DNA of 51,861 nucleotides. It comes from Candidatus Limnocylindria bacterium (GTDB taxonomy: Bacteria > Chloroflexota > Limnocylindria > P2-11E). The notes under the pieces were generated by a model. It had not been told where the DNA came from, did no database searches, and saw only the letters and a list, made by a program, of their open reading frames with translations. Of this stretch, positions 4,473-48,060 are shown piece after piece. The DNA lies in contig DATDNP010000083.1 in the NCBI GenBank assembly GCA_036518215.1, positions 1-51,861 of the forward strand. The letters run 5' to 3'. The position numbers and the translations under genes are program-made. Position 1 is the first letter of the stretch. Each line of letters starts with the position of its first letter.

Positions 4473-5452
4473 TCCCGCACGGCCTCCAGCCGCCAGAGCC
4501 AGCGGTCCGTCGCGCCGAGGTCGTACTTGTATGGCTCGTCGCCGCGAAGCAGGTCGTACACCTTGAAGCCCTGCGCGATCGCATCGCGGATCGCGTACGC
4601 GTGCGTCGCGATGCCGAGCGAGAGCGATGAGAAGGCGGGGTCGTACGCGGCGTTGTACAGGGCGAGCGTGTCTCCGTACGCGAACGCGAAGAGCACCGCG
4701 GCATCGACGTCGTGCGCGCGGATGACGCCGAGCCGCAGCGTGCCGTTGGCCGCGAGCGCGTCGGCGATATCGCGGAAGAACGACTCGGCCTCCGTGGTCA
4801 TGAACGCGGCCTTCTCGCCCTTCGAGAGACGGTGCAGCGCGAAGAAGCGGTCGAGCACGCTTGCGCGCTCCGACTCGGGCGCCCAGCGGAACCCCGTGCC
4901 GGGAGCGTCGTCGAATCGCCGCAGCTTGCGGCGCAGCTCATGCCGCTCCTTCTTGCCGAGTCCCTGCACGTACGTCTCGAAGTCACCGGGGAGCGTCATC
5001 CGCGGGCTCGTGATGAGGCGCTCGCGCGTCACCCGATAGCCACACGCGGCGAGGGTCTCGTCGATCGCGGTGAGCGTCGGCGTGTCTTCCGGAACGTACT
5101 CGAGGAGCACGCGCGGCGTGCGCTCGGCGGCGATCCACGTCGCGACCGCGACCGAAGCGCGCCGCGCGTCGTCGGGAGCGGCCGCGATGTCCTGTTCGTC
5201 GGTGAGCTCTCCGCCGGCGAAGCCGATGGTCCCGTCGGCGGAGCGCGCGAGCGCGGCCACGGCGTACGGAGGATCGCCCGCGGCGAGCGTGATCGGCTCC
5301 CGCGCGTCATGCGCTCGGGCCACCGCAAGCCAGTCGGGAGTGAGGAAGATGGAGGCTGGCGCGCGCCGCGCGGCGATGCCGGACCAGGCGGACCGGATCT
5401 CGCTCGGGGCGCGCGCGGTACAGGCTGCGTCCGGGCTGGTGGAGAGGGTCAC
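4469..5452 (-). CDS. GNAT family protein, Acetyltransf_6 / CelD-BcsL / FemAB-like double GNAT fold
   Basis: SIFLTPDWL, basic helix KKERHELRRKLRRF, YNAAYDP and YDLLRGDEPYKYDLG. GGAGG precedes GTG 5452. Confidence 0.82.
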   Translation of the reverse strand: MTLSTSPDAACTARAPSEIRSAWSGIAARRAPASIFLTPDWLAVARAHDAREPITLAAGDPPYAVAALARSADGTIGFAGGELTDEQDIAAAPDDARRASVAVATWIAAERTPRVLLEYVPEDTPTLTAIDETLAACGYRVTRERLITSPRMTLPGDFETYVQGLGKKERHELRRKLRRFDDAPGTGFRWAPESERASVLDRFFALHRLSKGEKAAFMTTEAESFFRDIADALAANGTLRLGVIRAHDVDAAVLFAFAYGDTLALYNAAYDPAFSSLSLGIATHAYAIRDAIAQGFKVYDLLRGDEPYKYDLGATDRWLWRLEAVRE

Positions 5453-6671: not shown

Positions 6672-7656
<985 letters not shown>

Positions 7657-9739: not shown

Positions 9740-9840
9740 CTTTCATCCAGAGAGGCTGAGGGAACGGCCCGATGACGCCTCGGCAACCGGCGGAGACCCG
9801 CAGTGGTGCCAACTCCGGCCCGACAAGGGAAAGATGAGAG
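9740..9840 (+). ncRNA. SAM-I (S-box) riboswitch
   Basis: CTTTCATCCAGAGAGG-CTGAGGGA-ACGGCCC-GATGACGCC-TCGGCAACC...GGTGCCAACTCC...AAGATGAGAG matches the S-box consensus. P1 is 9740-9747 paired with 9833-9840. It lies upstream of metF and metE. Confidence 0.94.
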
Positions 9841-9849
9841 GTCAGAAGT

Positions 9850-10767
9850 TTGAGCGCATTCACAGAGCTCATCGGTCGCGGCGAGTTCGTCGTCACGGCC
9901 GAGCTCAATCCCCCGAAGAGCGCCGCCGCGAGCGTCGTGCGTCGCCGCGCGAGCGTGCTCAAGGGGTACGCCGATGCGGTGAACATCACCGACAGCAATC
10001 GCGCGGTCGTCGCGATGGCCGCGATCCCCGCCGCCGTCCTCGTGCGTGAGGCCGGGGTCGAGCCGATCGTGCAGATGACCGGCCGCGATCGCAACCGCAT
10101 CGCGCTCCAGGCGGATCTCCTCGGCGCGAACGCGCTCGGACTCGAGCACTTCGTGTTCATGAGCGGCGACGACCCGAAGCAGGGGAACCATCCCGACGCG
10201 GTGAACGTGAAGGACCTCGACGGGATCGGCCTCGTGAAGATGGCCGTCCGGATGCGCGATGAGGGGAAGTTCCTGTCCGGGGACGAGCTGAAGCAGCCGC
10301 CACGCTACGTCGTGGGAGCGACCGCGTCACCGTTCACGAAGCCGATGGAGGCCGACGTCGCGAAGACGGTCGAGAAGATCGCGGCCGGCGCCGACTTCCT
10401 GCAGACCCAGCCGGTGTTCGACCTCGCGACCTTCGGCCGCTGGCTGGCCGAGGTCCGGCGCGCGGCTCCGCGGAACGTCGCGATCATCGCGGGCGTCTTC
10501 GTGCTGCGCTCGGCCGAGCAGGCCGAGCGGCTCGCGAAGATCCCGGGACTCGCGCTCGGCCCCGACGTGCTCGAGCGGATGAAGCGAGCGGACGACGCGG
10601 AGGCGGAAGGCGTCTCGCTCGCGGTCGAGATGGTGCGAAGCCTGCGCAAGCTGCCGGGGGTCGGCGGCGTGCATCTGTATGCGATCGAATGGCCGGAGGG
10701 CGTCGCGCGCGTCGTCGAAGGCGCCGGCCTCTACCCGCGAGCGAAAGTGAAGGAGGCCGTCCATTGA
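9850..10767 (+). CDS. metF: Methylenetetrahydrofolate reductase
   Basis: FVVTAELNPPK, AVNITDS, TGRDRNRIALQADLLGA, SGDDP, KIAAGADFLQTQPVFD and GVHLY. Confidence 0.92.
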   Translation: MSAFTELIGRGEFVVTAELNPPKSAAASVVRRRASVLKGYADAVNITDSNRAVVAMAAIPAAVLVREAGVEPIVQMTGRDRNRIALQADLLGANALGLEHFVFMSGDDPKQGNHPDAVNVKDLDGIGLVKMAVRMRDEGKFLSGDELKQPPRYVVGATASPFTKPMEADVAKTVEKIAAGADFLQTQPVFDLATFGRWLAEVRRAAPRNVAIIAGVFVLRSAEQAERLAKIPGLALGPDVLERMKRADDAEAEGVSLAVEMVRSLRKLPGVGGVHLYAIEWPEGVARVVEGAGLYPRAKVKEAVH

Positions 10768-11732
10768 AGACGACCGTCATCGGCGCCTATCCGAAGATCT
10801 CCGACGAGCGGCAGGACCTGCGCCGCGCGCTCCACGCGCACGACCGCGGCGAGCTCGACGACGCCGCGCTCGACACCGTGTACGACGAGACGATCGCGTG
10901 GGCCGTCGGCGAGATCCATTCCGCCGGGATCGACGTCCCGAACGACGGTCACATCCGCTGGGACGATCTGCTCGCGCCGTTCGCGAGCGGCTGGAAGAAC
11001 TGCGAGCGGGGACCGCTCGAGCGCTTCTACGACAACAACACCTACTTCCGGCAGCCCGTCGTGAAGGGACCGATCGAAAGCGACGGAAAGACGCTCGTGC
11101 GCGACTTCACGTACGCGAACAAGCTCGCGAGCGGGATGAAGGCGGGGATCTGCGGGCCGCTCACGTTCGCGACGCTCACCGCGGAGGATCGCCACTACAA
11201 GACCCTCGAGGACCGGACGCTCGCCGCGGCGGACGCGCTCGCCGCGGAGCTGCGCGGCCTCAAGGCCGCCGGCGCGCCGCTCGTCGACGTGGAGGAGCCC
11301 GCGCTCGCGGCGCACCCGGAGCTCATCGATCTCGAGCGCGCAGCGTTCGATCGGCTCGCGAAGGCGGGCGTGCCGCTCGCGCTCCATGCGTACTTCTTCC
11401 CGATCGACACGATCATCGCGAAGCTCGCGTCGTTCCCGATCGCGCAGCTCGGCGTCGATGCGCGGAGCCGCGAGACGTCCGCGAAGGCGATCGACGCGCT
11501 CGGCGCGTTCACGGGCACCGTCGTCCTCGGCATCGTCGACGCGCGGAACACCGCGGTCGAGACGCCGCGCGAGCTCGCCGATCTCATCGAGCGCGCCATC
11601 GGCCGCGTCTCGTACGACCGGCTCTGGTTCTCGCCGACGACGGGTCTCGAATACCTGCCGCACGACATCGCGGTCCGCAAGCTGTCCGCGCTCGTCTCGG
11701 CCGCGCGCGCAACGAAGGGGGTGCCGGCGTGA
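10764..11732 (+). CDS. Split cobalamin-independent methionine synthase, N-terminal (non-catalytic barrel) part
   Basis: AGGAGG plus TTG in a TTGA overlap with metF. TTVIGAYPK, DGHIRWDD, RFYDNNTYFRQP, GPLTFA and VLGIVDARN. Zn ligands absent (HAYF, PTTGL). Confidence 0.82.
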   Translation: MKTTVIGAYPKISDERQDLRRALHAHDRGELDDAALDTVYDETIAWAVGEIHSAGIDVPNDGHIRWDDLLAPFASGWKNCERGPLERFYDNNTYFRQPVVKGPIESDGKTLVRDFTYANKLASGMKAGICGPLTFATLTAEDRHYKTLEDRTLAAADALAAELRGLKAAGAPLVDVEEPALAAHPELIDLERAAFDRLAKAGVPLALHAYFFPIDTIIAKLASFPIAQLGVDARSRETSAKAIDALGAFTGTVVLGIVDARNTAVETPRELADLIERAIGRVSYDRLWFSPTTGLEYLPHDIAVRKLSALVSAARATKGVPA

Positions 11733-12712
11733 GCGAGATCCTATTGACGACGACGGTCGGCTCGTTCGGGAAGCCCGACTATCTGCAGAAGGCGCGCAAC
11801 CAGAACGCGCGCGGCAAGCTCTCCGACAGCGACCTCGAGCAGCTCGAGCGCAAGGCGACCGAGGAGTGGATCCGCCGTCAGGAGGCGATCGACCTCGACA
11901 TCCTCGTCGACGGAGAGATGTACCGCGGCGACATGGTCGCGTATTTCGCGGAGCGTCTCGAGGGGTTCACGATCGGCGGCCTCGTGCGCTCGTACGGGAA
12001 CCGCTACTACCACAAGCCCGTCATCGCATCGAAGGTCCGCCGGCCGAAGGCGATGACCGTCGACTGGTTCCGCTACACGCAAGGCCTCACCGATCGTCCG
12101 GTGAAGGGCATGCTCACGGGGCCGTACACGATGCTCGACTGGTCGTACAACGAGGCCTACAAGACGCGGCGCGACGCCGCGCTCGCGCTCGCCGAGGTCA
12201 TCCGGCAGGAGGCCGAGGACCTCGAACGCGCGGGCGCGAAATACATCCAGATCGACGAGCCCGCGATCCATGCGCGACCCGAGGAGATCGACATCGCGAT
12301 CGAGGCGATGGGCGTCGTCACGCAGAACCTGAAGGCGAAGACGGTGTCGCACATCTGCTACGGCGACTTCGCCGCGATCTACCCGAAGGTCCTCGAGCTC
12401 CCCGTCGACCAGCTCGATCTCGCCATGTCGAACTACGAATACCGCTGGCTCGATCTGTTCAAGCAGCATCCCTTCACGAAAGAGCTCGCGATCGGGATCG
12501 TCGACGTGCATTCGCACCGCCTCGAGACGGTCGACGAGGCCGCGGAGGGGATCCGCAAGGGGCTCGCGTACGTGAAGCCGGACAAGCTCCTGCCGCATCC
12601 CGACTGCGGGCTCAAGACACGCACGGTCGAGGAGTCGCTCGACAAGTGCCGCGTCGTCGTCGAGGCCGCGAAGAAAGTGCGCAGCGAGGTGTCCAAAGCG
12701 GCGGCCGTGTAG
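11729..12712 (+). CDS. metE: Split cobalamin-independent methionine synthase, catalytic Zn barrel
   Basis: GTGA overlap. TTTVGSFGKP, VDGEMYRGDMV, VRSYGNRYY, KGMLTGPYT, IQIDEPA, Zn ligands HICYG and HPDCGLKTR. Confidence 0.9.
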   Translation: MSEILLTTTVGSFGKPDYLQKARNQNARGKLSDSDLEQLERKATEEWIRRQEAIDLDILVDGEMYRGDMVAYFAERLEGFTIGGLVRSYGNRYYHKPVIASKVRRPKAMTVDWFRYTQGLTDRPVKGMLTGPYTMLDWSYNEAYKTRRDAALALAEVIRQEAEDLERAGAKYIQIDEPAIHARPEEIDIAIEAMGVVTQNLKAKTVSHICYGDFAAIYPKVLELPVDQLDLAMSNYEYRWLDLFKQHPFTKELAIGIVDVHSHRLETVDEAAEGIRKGLAYVKPDKLLPHPDCGLKTRTVEESLDKCRVVVEAAKKVRSEVSKAAAV

Positions 12713-15410: not shown

Positions 15411-16550
15411 TCAGCGGCCGTACAGCTCGAGGATCTCGCGCCGGAACGGGACGCCGGCCTTCTCGCGCAGGCGCTCGAACTCCTCGAAGTCCCACTCGCC
15501 GACGAACGTGACGGCGACGCCGGTCTCGCCGGCGCGACCCGTCCGACCGATGCGGTGCGTGAACGTCTCGGCGTCCTCGGGGAGGTCGTAGTTCACCACA
15601 TGGCTGATGTCCTCGATGTGGAGGCCGCGCGCCGCGAGGTTCGTCGCGATGAGGATCTTCACCTCGCCGCTTCGGAACTTCTCGAGCGTGCGCTCGCGCT
15701 CGCGCTGCGTCAGGTCCCCGTGGATCGCCGCGACCGCATGGCCGCGCCGCGTCACCTCATCGAGGAGACGGTCGACGCCGCGCTTCGTATGCCGGAAGAC
15801 GAGGACCTGCTCCGTCTCCCACCGCCGCAGGAGCTCCTCGAGCACGCGCGGCTTGTCCTCCTCGAGCACCTCGACGTACACCTGCTCGACGCTCTCGGTG
15901 GTCCGCCGCTCGGGATCGATGGCGATCTGGACGGGATCGTTCGTGAAGCGGTACGCGAGATCCTTGATCTCCCCGGTGAGCGTGGCGGAGAAGAGCGCGG
16001 TCTGACGCTGCTTCGGGACCATGCGCAGCAGGCGGCGGACATCGGGCGCGAATCCCATGTCGAGCAGGCGGTCGGCCTCGTCGAGCACGACGATGCGGAT
16101 CCCGTCCAGCTTCAGCGTGCCGCGCTGGATGTGATCGAGCAGTCGGCCCGGCGTGCCGATGATGATCTGGACGCCGCGCTTGAGCGCGCGCTCCTGCGGT
16201 CCGTACGGGACGCCGCCGTAGATCGCGACCTCGTGCGTATGTCGGAACTTCCCAAGCGCGCCGAACTCGCGTGTCACCTGCGTGGCGAGCTCGCGCGTCG
16301 GAACGACGACGAGCGCCTGCGGCCGCGCGTCGCCGGCATCGACGCGCGTGATGATCGGGATCGCGAACGCCGCGGTCTTGCCCGTCCCGGTCTGCGCCTG
16401 CGCGAGCACGTCGCGGCCCGCCTTGAGCGCCGGGATCGCCTGCGACTGCACGGGCGTCGGCACCATGAAGCCGAGCTCGTCGATCGCGCGCGCGACATCG
16501 GGATCGAGATCGAGATCGGCGAAGCCGCTGACCTTCGCGGTGTCTGTCAC
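15411..16550 (-). CDS. DEAD-box RNA helicase (minimal core)
   Basis: Q motif PTPVQ, AQTGTGKT, PTRELA, TPGRL, DEAD, SAT, HGDL and HRIGRTGRAG. GTGA overlap with the deoC stop. Confidence 0.95.
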   Translation of the reverse strand: MTDTAKVSGFADLDLDPDVARAIDELGFMVPTPVQSQAIPALKAGRDVLAQAQTGTGKTAAFAIPIITRVDAGDARPQALVVVPTRELATQVTREFGALGKFRHTHEVAIYGGVPYGPQERALKRGVQIIIGTPGRLLDHIQRGTLKLDGIRIVVLDEADRLLDMGFAPDVRRLLRMVPKQRQTALFSATLTGEIKDLAYRFTNDPVQIAIDPERRTTESVEQVYVEVLEEDKPRVLEELLRRWETEQVLVFRHTKRGVDRLLDEVTRRGHAVAAIHGDLTQRERERTLEKFRSGEVKILIATNLAARGLHIEDISHVVNYDLPEDAETFTHRIGRTGRAGETGVAVTFVGEWDFEEFERLREKAGVPFRREILELYGR

Positions 16551-17236
16551 CCCTCGCCGCGCCGCTGGCGAAGCTCGTCGAGGATCGCTTTCGTCGACGA
16601 CGTACCGAGCCGGCTCGCACCCGCCTCGAGCATCGCGAGCGCGTCGTCGAGCGTCCGGATACCGCCGGCGGCCTTCACCCCGATCTTGTCGCCCACGACC
16701 TCGCGCAGCAGCCGCACGTCCTCGACGGTCGCACCCTCGGGTCCGAAGCCCGTCGAGGTCTTCACGAAGTCGGCATCCGCCGCGAGCGCGATCTGCGCCG
16801 CGATCGCCTTCTGCGCGTCGTCGAGATACGCGCACTCGAGGATGACCTTCACGATCGCCTCGTTCGCGTGCGCGAGACCGACCACCATCCCGACCTCGCG
16901 CTCGATCGTCGCGTAGTCCTTGTCGACGAGCGCGCCGATGTTGATCACCATGTCGAGCTCGACCGCGCCGTCACGAAGGGCGTTCGTCGCCGTCCCCACC
17001 TTCACCTCCGGCGCCTGACCGCCGTGCGGGAACCCGATGACGGTCGACGTGACGACCCCCGAGTCCTTGAGGAGCCGGACCGTGTCGGGCACGTAGAAGG
17101 GCTTGACGCACACGCTCGCGATGTGCTCTTTGCGCGCGATCGTGCACGCGTCGACGACATCGCGCTCACCCTGGGTCGGCTTGAGGACCGCGTGATCGAT
17201 GACGGAGGCCAGCTCGGGGACTGACGGTAAGCTCAT
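16547..17236 (-). CDS. deoC: Deoxyribose-phosphate aldolase
   Basis: IDHAVLKP, TVIGFPHG, ELDMVINIG, VKVILEC, FVKTSTGF and KAAGGIRT. Confidence 0.96.
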   Translation of the reverse strand: MSLPSVPELASVIDHAVLKPTQGERDVVDACTIARKEHIASVCVKPFYVPDTVRLLKDSGVVTSTVIGFPHGGQAPEVKVGTATNALRDGAVELDMVINIGALVDKDYATIEREVGMVVGLAHANEAIVKVILECAYLDDAQKAIAAQIALAADADFVKTSTGFGPEGATVEDVRLLREVVGDKIGVKAAGGIRTLDDALAMLEAGASRLGTSSTKAILDELRQRRGEG

Positions 17237-17299
17237 CGTCGCTTCGCGCCGATTCGCATAGGACCTGTCTTCGCAGGGGCTCCGCCCCTGCCACCCCGG
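17233..17299 (-). repeat. Bipartite palindromic leader cassette, copy 1 (deoC)
   Basis: Blocks 17233-17253 (21 nt) and 17270-17299 (30 nt) match 47918-47938 and 47956-47985 at 50 of 51 nt. Confidence 0.9.
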
Positions 17300-17310
17300 A
17301 CTACGGCCAT
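17233..17310 (-). CDS. Putative 25-aa upstream ORF coupled to deoC (MAVVRGGRGGAPAKTGPMRIGAKRR)
   Basis: GGAGG-aaca-ATG at 17310. Its TGA overlaps the deoC ATG (ATGA). Confidence 0.5.
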   Translation of the reverse strand: MAVVRGGRGGAPAKTGPMRIGAKRR

Positions 17311-17342
17311 TGTTCCTCCAGTATCGCGGGTATGCTCGGCCG

Positions 17343-45909: not shown

Positions 45910-46782
45910 TTAGCGGGCGGCGAGCGCCTTCTTCACGAGCGCGGGGATCTCGCTCGGCGCGTTCGCGACGGGGATGCCCGCGGCCTCGAACGCCTTCACC
46001 TTCGACTCGGCCGTGCCCTGGTTGCCGGAGACGATCGCGCCGGCGTGACCCATGCGCTTCCCGGCCGGCGCGCTGCGGCCCGCGATGAACGCGACCGCAG
46101 GCTTCTTGCCGAACGCGCGCATGTACTCGGCGCTGTGTTCTTCCGCCGCGCCGCCGATCTCGCCGACGATGACGATGACCTCGGTCGCGGGATCTTCGTT
46201 CAGCAGACGCACCGCTTCCGGCGTCGGTAACCCGATGACCGGGTCGCCGCCGATGCCGAGGCACGTCGTCTGACCGAGACCGGCGCGTGACAGCGCGTCC
46301 GCGATCTCATACGTGAGCGTGCCGGAGCGCGACACGAAGCCCACCGGACCGGGCGTGAAGTTCTCCGCGGGCATGATGCCGAGCTTGCATTCGCCGGGTG
46401 TGATCGCGCCCGGGCAGTTCGGTCCGATGAGCGTCGTCGCGGAGCGCTCGAGGACGCTCGTCACCTTCAGCATGTCCTGGACGGCGATGCCTTCGGTGAT
46501 GCACACGACGAGCGAGAGCTCGGCGTCGATCGCCTCGAGCATCGCGTCCATCGCGCCGCCGGCCGGTACGAAGATGATCGACGCGTTCGCGCCGGTCGCG
46601 TCGACGGCCTGCGCGACGGTGTCGAAGAGCGGGATGCCCTCGATGCTCGTGCCGCCGGCACCGGGCTTCGTGCCGCCGACGACCTTCGTGCCGTACTCCT
46701 TCATCCGCGTCGCGTGGAACGTGCCCTCGCGGCCCATGCCCTGGACGAGGACCTTCGTCGTCTTCCCGAGGAGGACGGCCAT
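45910..46782 (-). CDS. sucD: Succinyl-CoA synthetase alpha subunit
   Basis: VLVQG, IFVPA, CITEGI, IGPNCPG, SRSGTLTYE, GIGGDP and KRMGHAGAI. Confidence 0.97.
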   Translation of the reverse strand: MAVLLGKTTKVLVQGMGREGTFHATRMKEYGTKVVGGTKPGAGGTSIEGIPLFDTVAQAVDATGANASIIFVPAGGAMDAMLEAIDAELSLVVCITEGIAVQDMLKVTSVLERSATTLIGPNCPGAITPGECKLGIMPAENFTPGPVGFVSRSGTLTYEIADALSRAGLGQTTCLGIGGDPVIGLPTPEAVRLLNEDPATEVIVIVGEIGGAAEEHSAEYMRAFGKKPAVAFIAGRSAPAGKRMGHAGAIVSGNQGTAESKVKAFEAAGIPVANAPSEIPALVKKALAAR

Positions 46783-47921
46783 TAGCGCGATCCCTTCGCG
46801 AGACGCACGGCCTCGGCGGCTGCCTCGTCCATCGTGGCGCGCGACTCGAGCGGGGCGCCCACGAGCAGCTTGCGGCCCGCCTCAGCCTCGGTGCCGGAGA
46901 GACGGATCACGAGCGGCACCTCCGGCGGATGCTGCGCGATGACCGAGAGGATCCCCTTCGCGACCTCGTCGCCGCGCGTGATGCCGCCGAAGATGTTGAT
47001 GAGCACGCTCTTCACGTTCTTGTTCGCGAGCACGATCTCGAGCGCGGCCTTCACGACGGCTTCCTTCGCGCCGCCGCCCACGTCGAGGAAGTTCGCGGCG
47101 CGGCCACCGGCGTTGCGCACGGCGTCGAGCGTGCCCATGACGAGACCGGCGCCGTTGCCGATGATGCCGACGTCCCCATCGAGCTGGACGTAGCTGAAGC
47201 CGAGCGCGCGGGCGCGCTCCTCGACCTCCTCGTCGGGGCTCACTTCCTTCCAGTCGCGCAGCTCGGGCTGACGGAACAGCGCGTTGTCGTCGATGTCGAG
47301 CTTCGCGTCGCCCGCGAGGACCGAGCCGTCGGTCTGGATGAAGAGCGGGTTGATCTCGATGAGCATCGCATCGGTCTTCGCGTACACGCCGTACAGCCGC
47401 TGCGCGATGTCGGTGACCGCGTTGCGCTGCTCCGCCGGCACGCCGGCGTCGAAGCAGAGCGCGCGGGCCTGATACGGCAGGAGGCCGAGCACCGGATCGG
47501 GCCATCCGCGGGCGATCTTCTCCGGCGTCGTCGCGGCGACCTCTTCGATGTCCATGCCGCCGACGGTCGAGAGCATGACGACGGCACGGCGGCGATCGCG
47601 GTCGAGGGTGATGCCGAGATAGAGCTCCTTCGCGATCTGCGCGCCGCGCTCGACGTACACCTTGCGCACGCGGAGTCCCTTGATCTGCATGTGGAGGATC
47701 GCCTTCGCGTGCTCGCCGGCCTCGGCCGGCGTCTTCGCGACCTTGATGCCCCCGGCCTTGCCGCGTCCGCCCGCGTGGACCTGCGCCTTCACGACGACGG
47801 TGCCGCCGAGCGCGCGCGCGGCGGCCTCGGCCTCTTCGGGGGTCGTGGCGATCCGGCCTTCGGGTACGGGGATGCCGGCGCGCGCGAGCAGTTGTTTGGC
47901 CTGGTACTCGTGCAGCTTCAT
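46782..47921 (-). CDS. sucC: Succinyl-CoA synthetase beta subunit
   Basis: MKLHEYQAK, VKAQVHAGGRGKAGG, GGMDIEEVA, EINPL, DAKLDIDDNALFRQ, GNGAGL, NFLDVGGG and INIFGGITRGD. Confidence 0.98.
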   Translation of the reverse strand: MKLHEYQAKQLLARAGIPVPEGRIATTPEEAEAAARALGGTVVVKAQVHAGGRGKAGGIKVAKTPAEAGEHAKAILHMQIKGLRVRKVYVERGAQIAKELYLGITLDRDRRRAVVMLSTVGGMDIEEVAATTPEKIARGWPDPVLGLLPYQARALCFDAGVPAEQRNAVTDIAQRLYGVYAKTDAMLIEINPLFIQTDGSVLAGDAKLDIDDNALFRQPELRDWKEVSPDEEVEERARALGFSYVQLDGDVGIIGNGAGLVMGTLDAVRNAGGRAANFLDVGGGAKEAVVKAALEIVLANKNVKSVLINIFGGITRGDEVAKGILSVIAQHPPEVPLVIRLSGTEAEAGRKLLVGAPLESRATMDEAAAEAVRLAKGSR

Positions 47922-47985
47922 CGTCGCTTCGCGCCGATGAAGACAACACCCTCTTTTCGCAGGGGCTCTGCCCCTGCCACCCCGG
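47918..47985 (-). repeat. Bipartite palindromic leader cassette, copy 2 (sucC)
   Basis: Same two blocks as 17233-17299, with a 17-nt rather than 16-nt variable spacer. Again includes the start codon. Confidence 0.9.
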
Positions 47986-48060
47986 CAGGGTCGTGGCGGA
48001 CGTGGAGCGCTGAGGTCTGCAAGGCGTTCACCGGGTCAGCCCGAGGATATCGTCGCGCGC

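Follow-up and report, generated by a model that had tools for sequence, protein, structure and literature searches.

A two-hairpin cassette at the sucC and deoC start codons

In a 51,861-nt stretch of DNA from Candidatus Limnocylindria bacterium, a soil member of the Chloroflexota (assembly GCA_036518215.1, contig DATDNP010000083.1; 'the window' below means this whole stretch), sucC and a DeoC/LacD-family aldolase gene (deoC) each begin with the ATG that closes a nearly identical short cassette. Alignment with relatives indicates that this cassette is an insertion in the window's lineage, placed exactly at the two start codons. Judged from its layout, it is probably a short (about 70–110 nt), G+C-rich, two-hairpin repeat, mobile or duplicative, that would preserve expression of its host gene by coupling termination of a short upstream frame to reinitiation on the new start codon.

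Both copies, A at deoC and B at sucC, lie on the minus strand (Table 1). Each consists of block 1, CCGGGGTGGCAGGGGC[G/A]GAGCCCCTGCGAA (30 nt, one mismatch between the copies), a spacer of 16 nt in copy A or 17 nt in copy B with unrelated sequences, and block 2, ATCGGCGCGAAGCGACGATG, whose terminal ATG is the start of the respective gene, both genes being confirmed by Pfam. With the A that follows block 2 in both copies, 21 nt including ATGA are identical, and 50 of 51 nt are identical over both blocks. Block 1 contains a hairpin, HP1, and a second hairpin, HP2, spans block 2. The block 1 pair was not matched in any of 100 shuffles, the expectation for block 2 was 0.04, and the chance expectation for the paired blocks is about 0. 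A covariance model of the cassette gave 89.8 and 83.1 bits for the two copies, with 14.8 bits for the next best hit in the window, and a search of the window with this model returned no third cassette (2 copies in 52 kb). Copy A belongs to class I (16-nt spacer, arms GCGAAT...ATGAGC) and copy B to class II (17-nt spacer, arms CTTCAT...ATGAAG). As the two copies belong to different subfamilies, neither is simply a duplicate of the other.

Divergent genes, for an M50 peptidase and a SKI-like kinase, face the two sites. No Shine-Dalgarno (SD) sequence precedes the new ATG at either copy, and no intrinsic terminator or sigma-70 promoter was found around either. An earlier, sequence-only reading of the window had described the paired blocks with their unrelated spacers, the frame ending IGAKRR-TGA in an ATGA overlap with the gene, in-frame GTGs at 47980 and 48031, the missing SD sequence and the divergent intergenic setting, and had judged chance coincidence unlikely; this description proved right in every detail. 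Its concern that the duplication might be an assembly artefact can be set aside on the evidence of gene order: on both sides of either copy the genes stand in an order shared with relatives, which excludes misassembly.

Empty and filled sites in relatives

A protein search and exact look-ups served to locate SucC relatives; the look-up returned no record of a protein identical to the SucC of the window. Empty sucC sites occur in L057 (98% identical SucC), L058, L061, L066, L067 and L068, which read ...GACGATATCCTCGG..CCCC[G/T]TGAAGCTCCAC, and the spacer between the kinase gene and sucC is a compact 27 nt in six contigs whose SucC identity ranges from 98% to about 80%. At this place the window has 105 extra nt between ...GATATCCTCGGGCTGACCCGGTGAA and ATGAAGCTGCAC (the junction reading ...GGTGAA). 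The insertion point follows nt 5 (GTGAA) of the ancestral sucC open reading frame (ORF), with boundaries that are ambiguous owing to the repeated TGAA. At deoC, the empty sites of L062 and L063/L064 (90–92% identical protein) read ...gatacttga..gca.ATGAG[T/C]CT, and the filled site of the window reads ...gatactggaggaacaATG, 71 extra nt and ATGAGCTTA, that is, ATG, 71 nt and ATGAGC. A third locus, the sucC/sucD junction, is empty in the window (TAATG) and in L057, L058, L059 and L061, and filled in L013 and L026 (ACATGAG/ACGTACCC...GCGACG/ATGAGCGTC). Short repeats flank the junctions: TGAA at sucC, ATG(AG) at deoC and ATGAG at sucD. No cassette was found in 127 kb of syntenic DNA from the sucC and deoC relatives. 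As the relatives carry uninterrupted start codons, the cassette is the inserted state, and the empty sites in close relatives that the sequence-only reading had proposed to look for were thus found at both loci.

Three observations concern these loci and their relatives. The 9-mer GGAGGAACA precedes the old ATG of copy A, where relatives carry a different one. A different insert of 77 nt, with the hairpin CAGCCGGAGT-TGCG-ACTCCGGCTG, lies just 5' of the sucC GTG in L059 (9792–10000) and L060 (1248–1456); the relative that carries it has a 93% identical SucC, and its divergent kinase gene is shrunk to a 77-aa remnant. Six SucC relatives (P0010, P0049, P0052, P0054, P0056 and P0109) are called with N-terminal extensions of 30–85 aa, which are antisense readings of the divergent kinase gene (..VVFP.PV.PT.ETR..) and an annotation artefact of open frames in 70% G+C DNA.

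Distribution of the cassette in Limnocylindria

The family was sampled by one exact scan with the HP1 pattern each of species-representative genomes and of metagenome contigs. In these scans HP1 was detected in Limnocylindria/Chloroflexota DNA only, the remaining matches being unrelated G+C hairpins. We collected 26 distinct full cassettes (HP1, spacer, HP2 and start codon) ahead of 16 different genes, among them sucD, gcvH, argR, ruvB and genes for an amino-acid kinase, an ETF subunit, a Liv-type (livH-like) permease, a KAS-III-like protein, a Zn-dehydrogenase (Zn-ADH), a CpaF-like ATPase, an NlpC/P60 protein and a member of the MR/MLE enolase family. All 26 are co-oriented with the downstream gene in exact register, and 26/26 end in [A/G]TGA. 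Of the two explanations offered by the sequence-only reading, a mobile mini-element that supplies or replaces start codons is therefore supported twice over, by the precise empty sites at both loci and by the same cassette recurring ahead of 16 unrelated genes in related genomes.

HP1 also occurs alone: four contigs carry it between pyrR and pyrB, and it is found after rplA and ahead of the rplJ leader, twice in tandem between nusG and rplK, and after stop codons between convergent genes (L001, L008, L056). Tandem HP1 units number 2 in L004 and 3 in L066. HP2 was rejected as an independent module, there being no HP2 without HP1 in 391 kb. The 5' flank of the cassettes has the consensus CGTACCCGGGGTG (CGTACCC), with GTAG in copy A only. 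No Rfam family matched at its gathering score (the best match below threshold gave 15 bits, E = 2.9), and neither block 1 nor block 2 had a match in viral contigs, on which ground a phage origin was rejected. Our literature search found no paper on Limnocylindria repeats.

Several further sites carry HP1 or its relatives. In frame, HP1 (..GGRG[G/K]APAK..) forms part of the N-terminal tail of a ParB-like protein and of the N-region of a Tat-signal protein (L010 at about 7290–7400, L048; L049, L053). The 3' end of sucC and its junction with sucD form a hot spot with one to three HP1-like hairpins (L066 3070–3236; L067 11100–11176; L068 3190–3269; L037 about 5210–5260), which are translated as a basic C-terminal tail of SucC (e.g. 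...TRGGVGGSAPTRSTGGSPPATETRGSAPTRTKK, then the stop codon), still ending in ATGA on sucD. On the minus strand of L023 (about 1150–1330), this junction holds a degenerate cassette that no longer has its ATG, with the 20-nt direct repeat GAGTCGAGCGAGGAGCGGCT on its flanks; the cassettes of L024 and L029 have a similar sequence, GTCGAGCGAGGAG, on their 5' side. About 170 nt after the HP1 that precedes rplJ there is a conserved, apparently structured leader (L020, L031, L036, L040, L042), GGCTATCGAGT.GTCCATTCGATAGACTGA..., which is below the Rfam gathering score and may be a lineage-specific L10 leader. L044 and L045 have the upstream gene and HP1 in common (92.7% identity over 300 nt) and differ in spacer, HP2 and downstream gene, a pattern suggestive of recombination within the repeat or of a chimeric assembly (L045 is a 1.7-kb metagenome contig).

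Both hairpins keep their stems

HP1, formed within block 1, reads GCAGGGGC-NGA-GCCCCUGC and has a predicted stability of −17.2 kcal/mol. HP2 has the core AUCG-G-CGC-GAA-GCG-A-CGAU, from which the stem extends outward to take AUG and codon 2 into its 3' arm; it encloses the new AUG at 17234–17236 with deoC codon 2 in copy A and that at 47919–47921 with sucC codon 2 in copy B. RNAalifold recovered both hairpins unaided. In the alignment of the 26 cassettes, 8/14 HP2 pairs were changed on both sides. The covariation score of HP2 was 0.217, compared with 0.077 ± 0.011 after shuffling (0/500 shuffles reached 0.217) and at most 0.086 when the partners were slid. The start codon itself covaries, GTG starts pairing with C and ATG starts with T; for codon 2 the pairing is AAG/CTT, AGC/GCT or ACC/GGT, whereas pairing past codon 2 extends no more than 1–3 nt. 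The structure of HP2 is under selection and is kept by compensatory changes.

HP1-like units at the sucC 3' end of distant relatives, which were not selected by the search pattern, keep the stem with flipped base pairs. Such units read GCAGGGGG-TCCT-CCCCCTGC in L067, and CAGGGGG-TTCG-CCCCCTG and GTGGGGG...CCCCCAC in L066; among the HP1-like variants of the hot spot, several retain the stem by flipped pairs.

Two other readings of these sequences were rejected. An inverted duplication of the 5' coding sequence of the target does not explain the spacer, complementarity past codon 2 being 27.9% with the own gene and 25% with other genes. A sigma-54 promoter in block 1 (TGGCAG-N5-GAGC) was discarded on reading the sequence, as the −12 TTGC is absent, the loop bases are variable and the genes are housekeeping ones.

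A through-frame connects the old and the new start codon

The old start codon is still in place in both copies (GTG at 48031 in B; ATG at 17310 in A, preceded by GGAGG at 17315–17319), and the frame that it opens crosses HP1, the spacer and HP2 to a TGA overlapping the new ATG. As both ATGs are followed by A, this frame, ...IGAKRR-TGA, overlaps the start as ATGA. An A at +4 is found in 45% of window genes compared with 26/26 cassettes. Every cassette can be entered from a start codon just 5' of HP1 or from a long upstream gene, and the entering frame stops either at NTGA or at TGATG, in which case a mini-ORF of 8 codons comes next and runs to ATGA. Orthologous cassettes before the CpaF-like gene (L014 versus L024/L029) differ in indels, class, start codon and peptide, and the through-frame is open in both; compared with other class I copies, copy A has apparently undergone two frame-restoring indels. 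The uniform orientation and register of the cassettes, together with a frame that is kept across indels, argue for selection at the level of translation.

These data suggest a model in which ribosomes would start at the undisturbed old site and, while reading the short frame, unfold HP1 and HP2. They would then terminate at A-TGA and re-initiate on the new ATG, a coupling with −4 spacing. HP2 would hold the new start silent unless a ribosome comes from upstream, and the host gene could thereby remain under its original translational control despite having no SD sequence of its own. The element cannot encode an enzyme, so mobilization in trans or copying by recombination would be required. A split ribosome-binding site, in which HP1 would bring GGGGUGG next to the AUG, suits L004 and L037, but not the full cassette with its paired AUG, and was left aside.

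Several points weigh against this model. Its translational step is one that we purely infer. Open frames of 25–40 codons are common in DNA of 70% G+C, so that openness alone is weak evidence, and in L022/L055, L034 and L039 there is no start codon just 5' of HP1, an upstream gene or mini-ORF being needed instead. Copy B has 41 extra nt (47986–48026) between the old GTGAA and CCGGGG that occur in no other copy. HP1 is invariant in the sample, but the search pattern fixed its sequence. As to mobility, the flanking repeats are only 3–5 nt long and could merely reflect two start codons, no transposase or recombinase was found among the 53 window genes scanned, and each species-representative metagenome-assembled genome gave one exact HP1 match, with no extra copies in 391 kb; such an apparently low copy number is unusual for a selfish repeat. 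Overall, the feature is real, and its anatomy and its origin as an insertion are largely explained.

Alternative explanations

A rather unlikely alternative is that the hairpins are recognition structures of single-strand DNA transposition, as in an IS200/IS605-derived PATE or a repetitive extragenic palindromic (REP) sequence mobilized by a RAYT-type HUH enzyme. HP1 and HP2 would then be the left-end and right-end hairpins, and HP2 would use its 5' arm as a guide, pairing with the target NTGARN; covariation would reflect DNA hairpins and target recognition rather than RNA, with coupling as a tolerated by-product. In favour of this reading, the cassette has a G+C-rich subterminal hairpin at either end, and the very stable mini-hairpin motif GCGAAGC is frequent in both. 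It is always inserted beside NTGA[AG], with a left flank of NTG(AR) whose letters recur at the right end, and the HP2 5' arm changes together with codon 2 of the target. The lone HP1 units after stops or between convergent genes cannot serve translation, and the flipped-pair HP1-like hairpins of L066 and L067 count on the same side. However, the window holds no Y1/HUH gene, the RAYT/HUH partner suggested in the sequence-only reading being absent from the 53 genes scanned, and the 5' flank lacks a conserved tetranucleotide of the GTAG type. Copy density is low, unlike that of REPs; on these last two grounds the cassette was also rejected as a REP. IS200/IS605 elements make no target duplication, and 26/26 cassettes co-oriented and in register, with a through-frame open even across indels, speak for selection on translation. 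We hold it doubtful, too, that the element homes to start codons by base pairing in single-stranded DNA, in which the HP2 5' arm (YTCAT or GCGAAT), itself changeable, would guide it to the opening five or six bases of the target ORF (NTGARN). If true, this would make it a small, retargetable, start-codon-specific mobile element with its own expression-rescue device.

The other explanation of the sequence-only reading, a shared RNA regulatory element or regulon for deoC and sucCD, found no support, and we regard it as distinctly improbable. On this view the cassette would act in cis as a regulatory RNA, be it a leader, a thermosensor or a protein-binding site, and would join deoC, sucCD and others in one post-transcriptional regulon, a conserved factor binding HP1 and HP2 gating the start codon. 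HP1 is indeed conserved almost to the base over species and loci and keeps a fixed place in operons of several species (pyrR-pyrB, rplA-rplJ, nusG-rplK), and HP2 is predicted to occlude the start codon. Yet the same genes lack the cassette in close relatives with 90–98% identical proteins, the downstream genes are housekeeping genes with no common pathway or theme, and there is no Rfam match. Variation of the HP1 loop (GGA, AGA, GAA, GCA, AAA, TGA) speaks against CsrA or another binder specific for the loop, and a CsrA-type GGA loop was rejected for this reason. In addition, the element is sometimes translated within proteins (L010/L048, L049/L053, L037, L066). The interpretation in the sequence-only reading was, as a whole, partly supported.

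Very improbable is an ancestral leader that the relatives have lost. Presence and absence alone give no direction, and the sucC/sucD junction carries related elements in many lineages; but at least eight relatives spanning 98–80% SucC identity share the 27-nt kinase-sucC spacer with an intact start codon, repeated deletions would be required, each precisely restoring the start codon and likewise at deoC, and the window copies fall into two subfamilies. It is hardly credible that the product of the short frame is a basic peptide with a function (...GGRGGAPAK...RIGAKRR) or a leader peptide for classical attenuation. Most class I copies have a similar peptide, but the blocks lack synonymous variation, their conservation being one of nucleotides; block 1 is read in another frame (GVAGAEPLRK) by the class II copies, copy B among them, and the L014 and L024 peptides differ at the same locus.

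Relation to known repeats and wider implications

The closest known kind, by analogy of described features, is the MIRU, the interspersed repetitive unit of mycobacteria, reportedly described by Supply et al. in 1997. The strategy proposed here, to insert at a start codon, supply a new start and hand over ribosomes by a stop/start overlap, appears so far to have been described for MIRUs. MIRUs insert at start codons and carry a coupled ORF with −4 spacing (PMC12548453); they measure 40–100 bp, show empty and filled sites and tetranucleotide direct repeats, and have G+C-rich internal inverted repeats and ORFs that overlap adjacent genes (PMC3184786). The cassette is likewise short and G+C-rich with internal inverted repeats (inserts of 74 and 110 nt, two hairpins), has filled and empty sites with 3–5-nt direct repeats, and lies at start codons or between cistrons; tandem HP1 units occur as well (L004, L066). 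It also shares the co-oriented internal ORF that overlaps the stop and start codons of its neighbours at −4 spacing and would keep the host gene translated, the through-frame being open in all 26 copies. In contrast to MIRUs, its hosts are Chloroflexota, class Limnocylindria, rather than Actinomycetota; its start codon forms part of a hairpin in which compensatory variation is clear; it is modular (HP1 alone, or HP1, spacer and HP2); its observed copy number is low, where the MIRU criterion is dozens per genome in variable tandem arrays; and some cassettes have a two-step relay (TGATG, 8-codon ORF, ATGA). As all matches lie in Limnocylindria/Chloroflexota, the cassette is not classed as a MIRU proper, and the likeness drawn here is one of described features.

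HP1-only copies behave like REP/BIME sequences and REPINs, which are short G+C-rich extragenic hairpins after stops and between cistrons, sometimes in tandem. The cassette differs from these in having no conserved 5' GTAG, a far lower density and a strict start-codon register, with no RAYT among the 53 window genes. Translation of HP1 at protein N- or C-termini (ParB-like, Tat-signal and SucC tails) recalls the Rickettsia palindromic elements and other in-frame repeats (PMC3184786), but the full cassette is not fused to a protein, the overlapping stop and start separating the upstream frame from the gene. Coupling by an occluding hairpin is known from phage f1 genes VII/IX, the MS2 coat and replicase genes and the synthetic 'bicistronic design' leader (PMC12548453), whereas here it would sit on a repeated, insertion-polymorphic element and not be fixed in one operon. 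A classical miniature inverted-repeat transposable element was rejected, as the ends of the cassette, CGTACCCGGGG on the left and GCGACGATG on the right, lack complementarity and the inverted repeats are internal. An integron attC site was rejected as well: the arms end YTCAT...ATGAR with no RYYYAAC...GTTRRRY cores, and the copies stand singly before housekeeping genes.

If the mechanism holds, the MIRU strategy would be no mycobacterial oddity but a recurrent solution in unrelated high-G+C phyla, and the cassette a compact natural 'bicistronic design' part. The annotation of uncultured Chloroflexota is affected in practice: gene callers produce wrong starts or N- and C-terminal extensions at such sites, for example in SucC relatives of 405–465 aa. 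Strain-level studies of populations in soil metagenomes would have good markers in these cleanly filled or empty sites.

Feature coordinates and neighbouring genes

Table 1. Cassette features and adjoining genes in the window
Feature	Position	Strand	Evidence or value
Copy B, whole cassette	47918–47985	−	
Copy B, insert: 110 nt without counterpart in relatives	47917–48026	−	Alignment of window with L057, L058, L061
Copy B, old sucC start codon GTG, matching the TTG/GTG start of relatives in the alignment; the upstream frame now begins here	48029–48031	−	
Copy B, upstream frame: 37 sense codons, from old GTG to TGA overlapping new ATG (ATGA)	47918–48031	−	
Copy B, block 1 with HP1 (stem 47970–47977 with 47959–47966, loop AGA)	47956–47985	−	−17.2 kcal/mol
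Copy B, spacer, class II, 17 nt; last 4 nt CTTC are the outer 5' arm of HP2	47939–47955	−	
Copy B, block 2	47919–47938	−	
Copy B, HP2: CUUCAUCG-G-CGC-GAA-GCG-A-CGAUGAAG	47916–47942	−	−18.6 kcal/mol, z = −3.4; covariation
sucC	46782–47921	−	Pfam
sucD, downstream of sucC, joined as TAATG	45910–46782	−	
Copy A, whole cassette	17233–17299	−	
Copy A, insert: 74 nt without counterpart in relatives, directly after ancestral deoC ATG	17234–17307	−	Alignment of window with L062, L063
Copy A, upstream frame: 25 sense codons, MAVVRGGRGGAPAKTGPMRIGAKRR and stop, from old ATG (17308–17310) to TGA overlapping new ATG	17233–17310	−	
Copy A, block 1 with HP1 (17273–17291, loop GGA)	17270–17299	−	
Copy A, block 2	17234–17253	−	
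Copy A, HP2: GCGAAUCG-G-CGC-GAA-GCG-A-CGAUGAGC, tandem G.A mismatches	17231–17257	−	
DeoC/LacD-family aldolase gene, then DEAD-box helicase and HIT genes	16547–17236	−	Pfam

Elsewhere in the window, a SAM-I riboswitch (83 bits; 9740–9840, plus strand) lies directly 5' of an MTHFR gene (9850–10767), which is followed by two adjacent half-size MetE-like genes (10764–11732 and 11729–12712).

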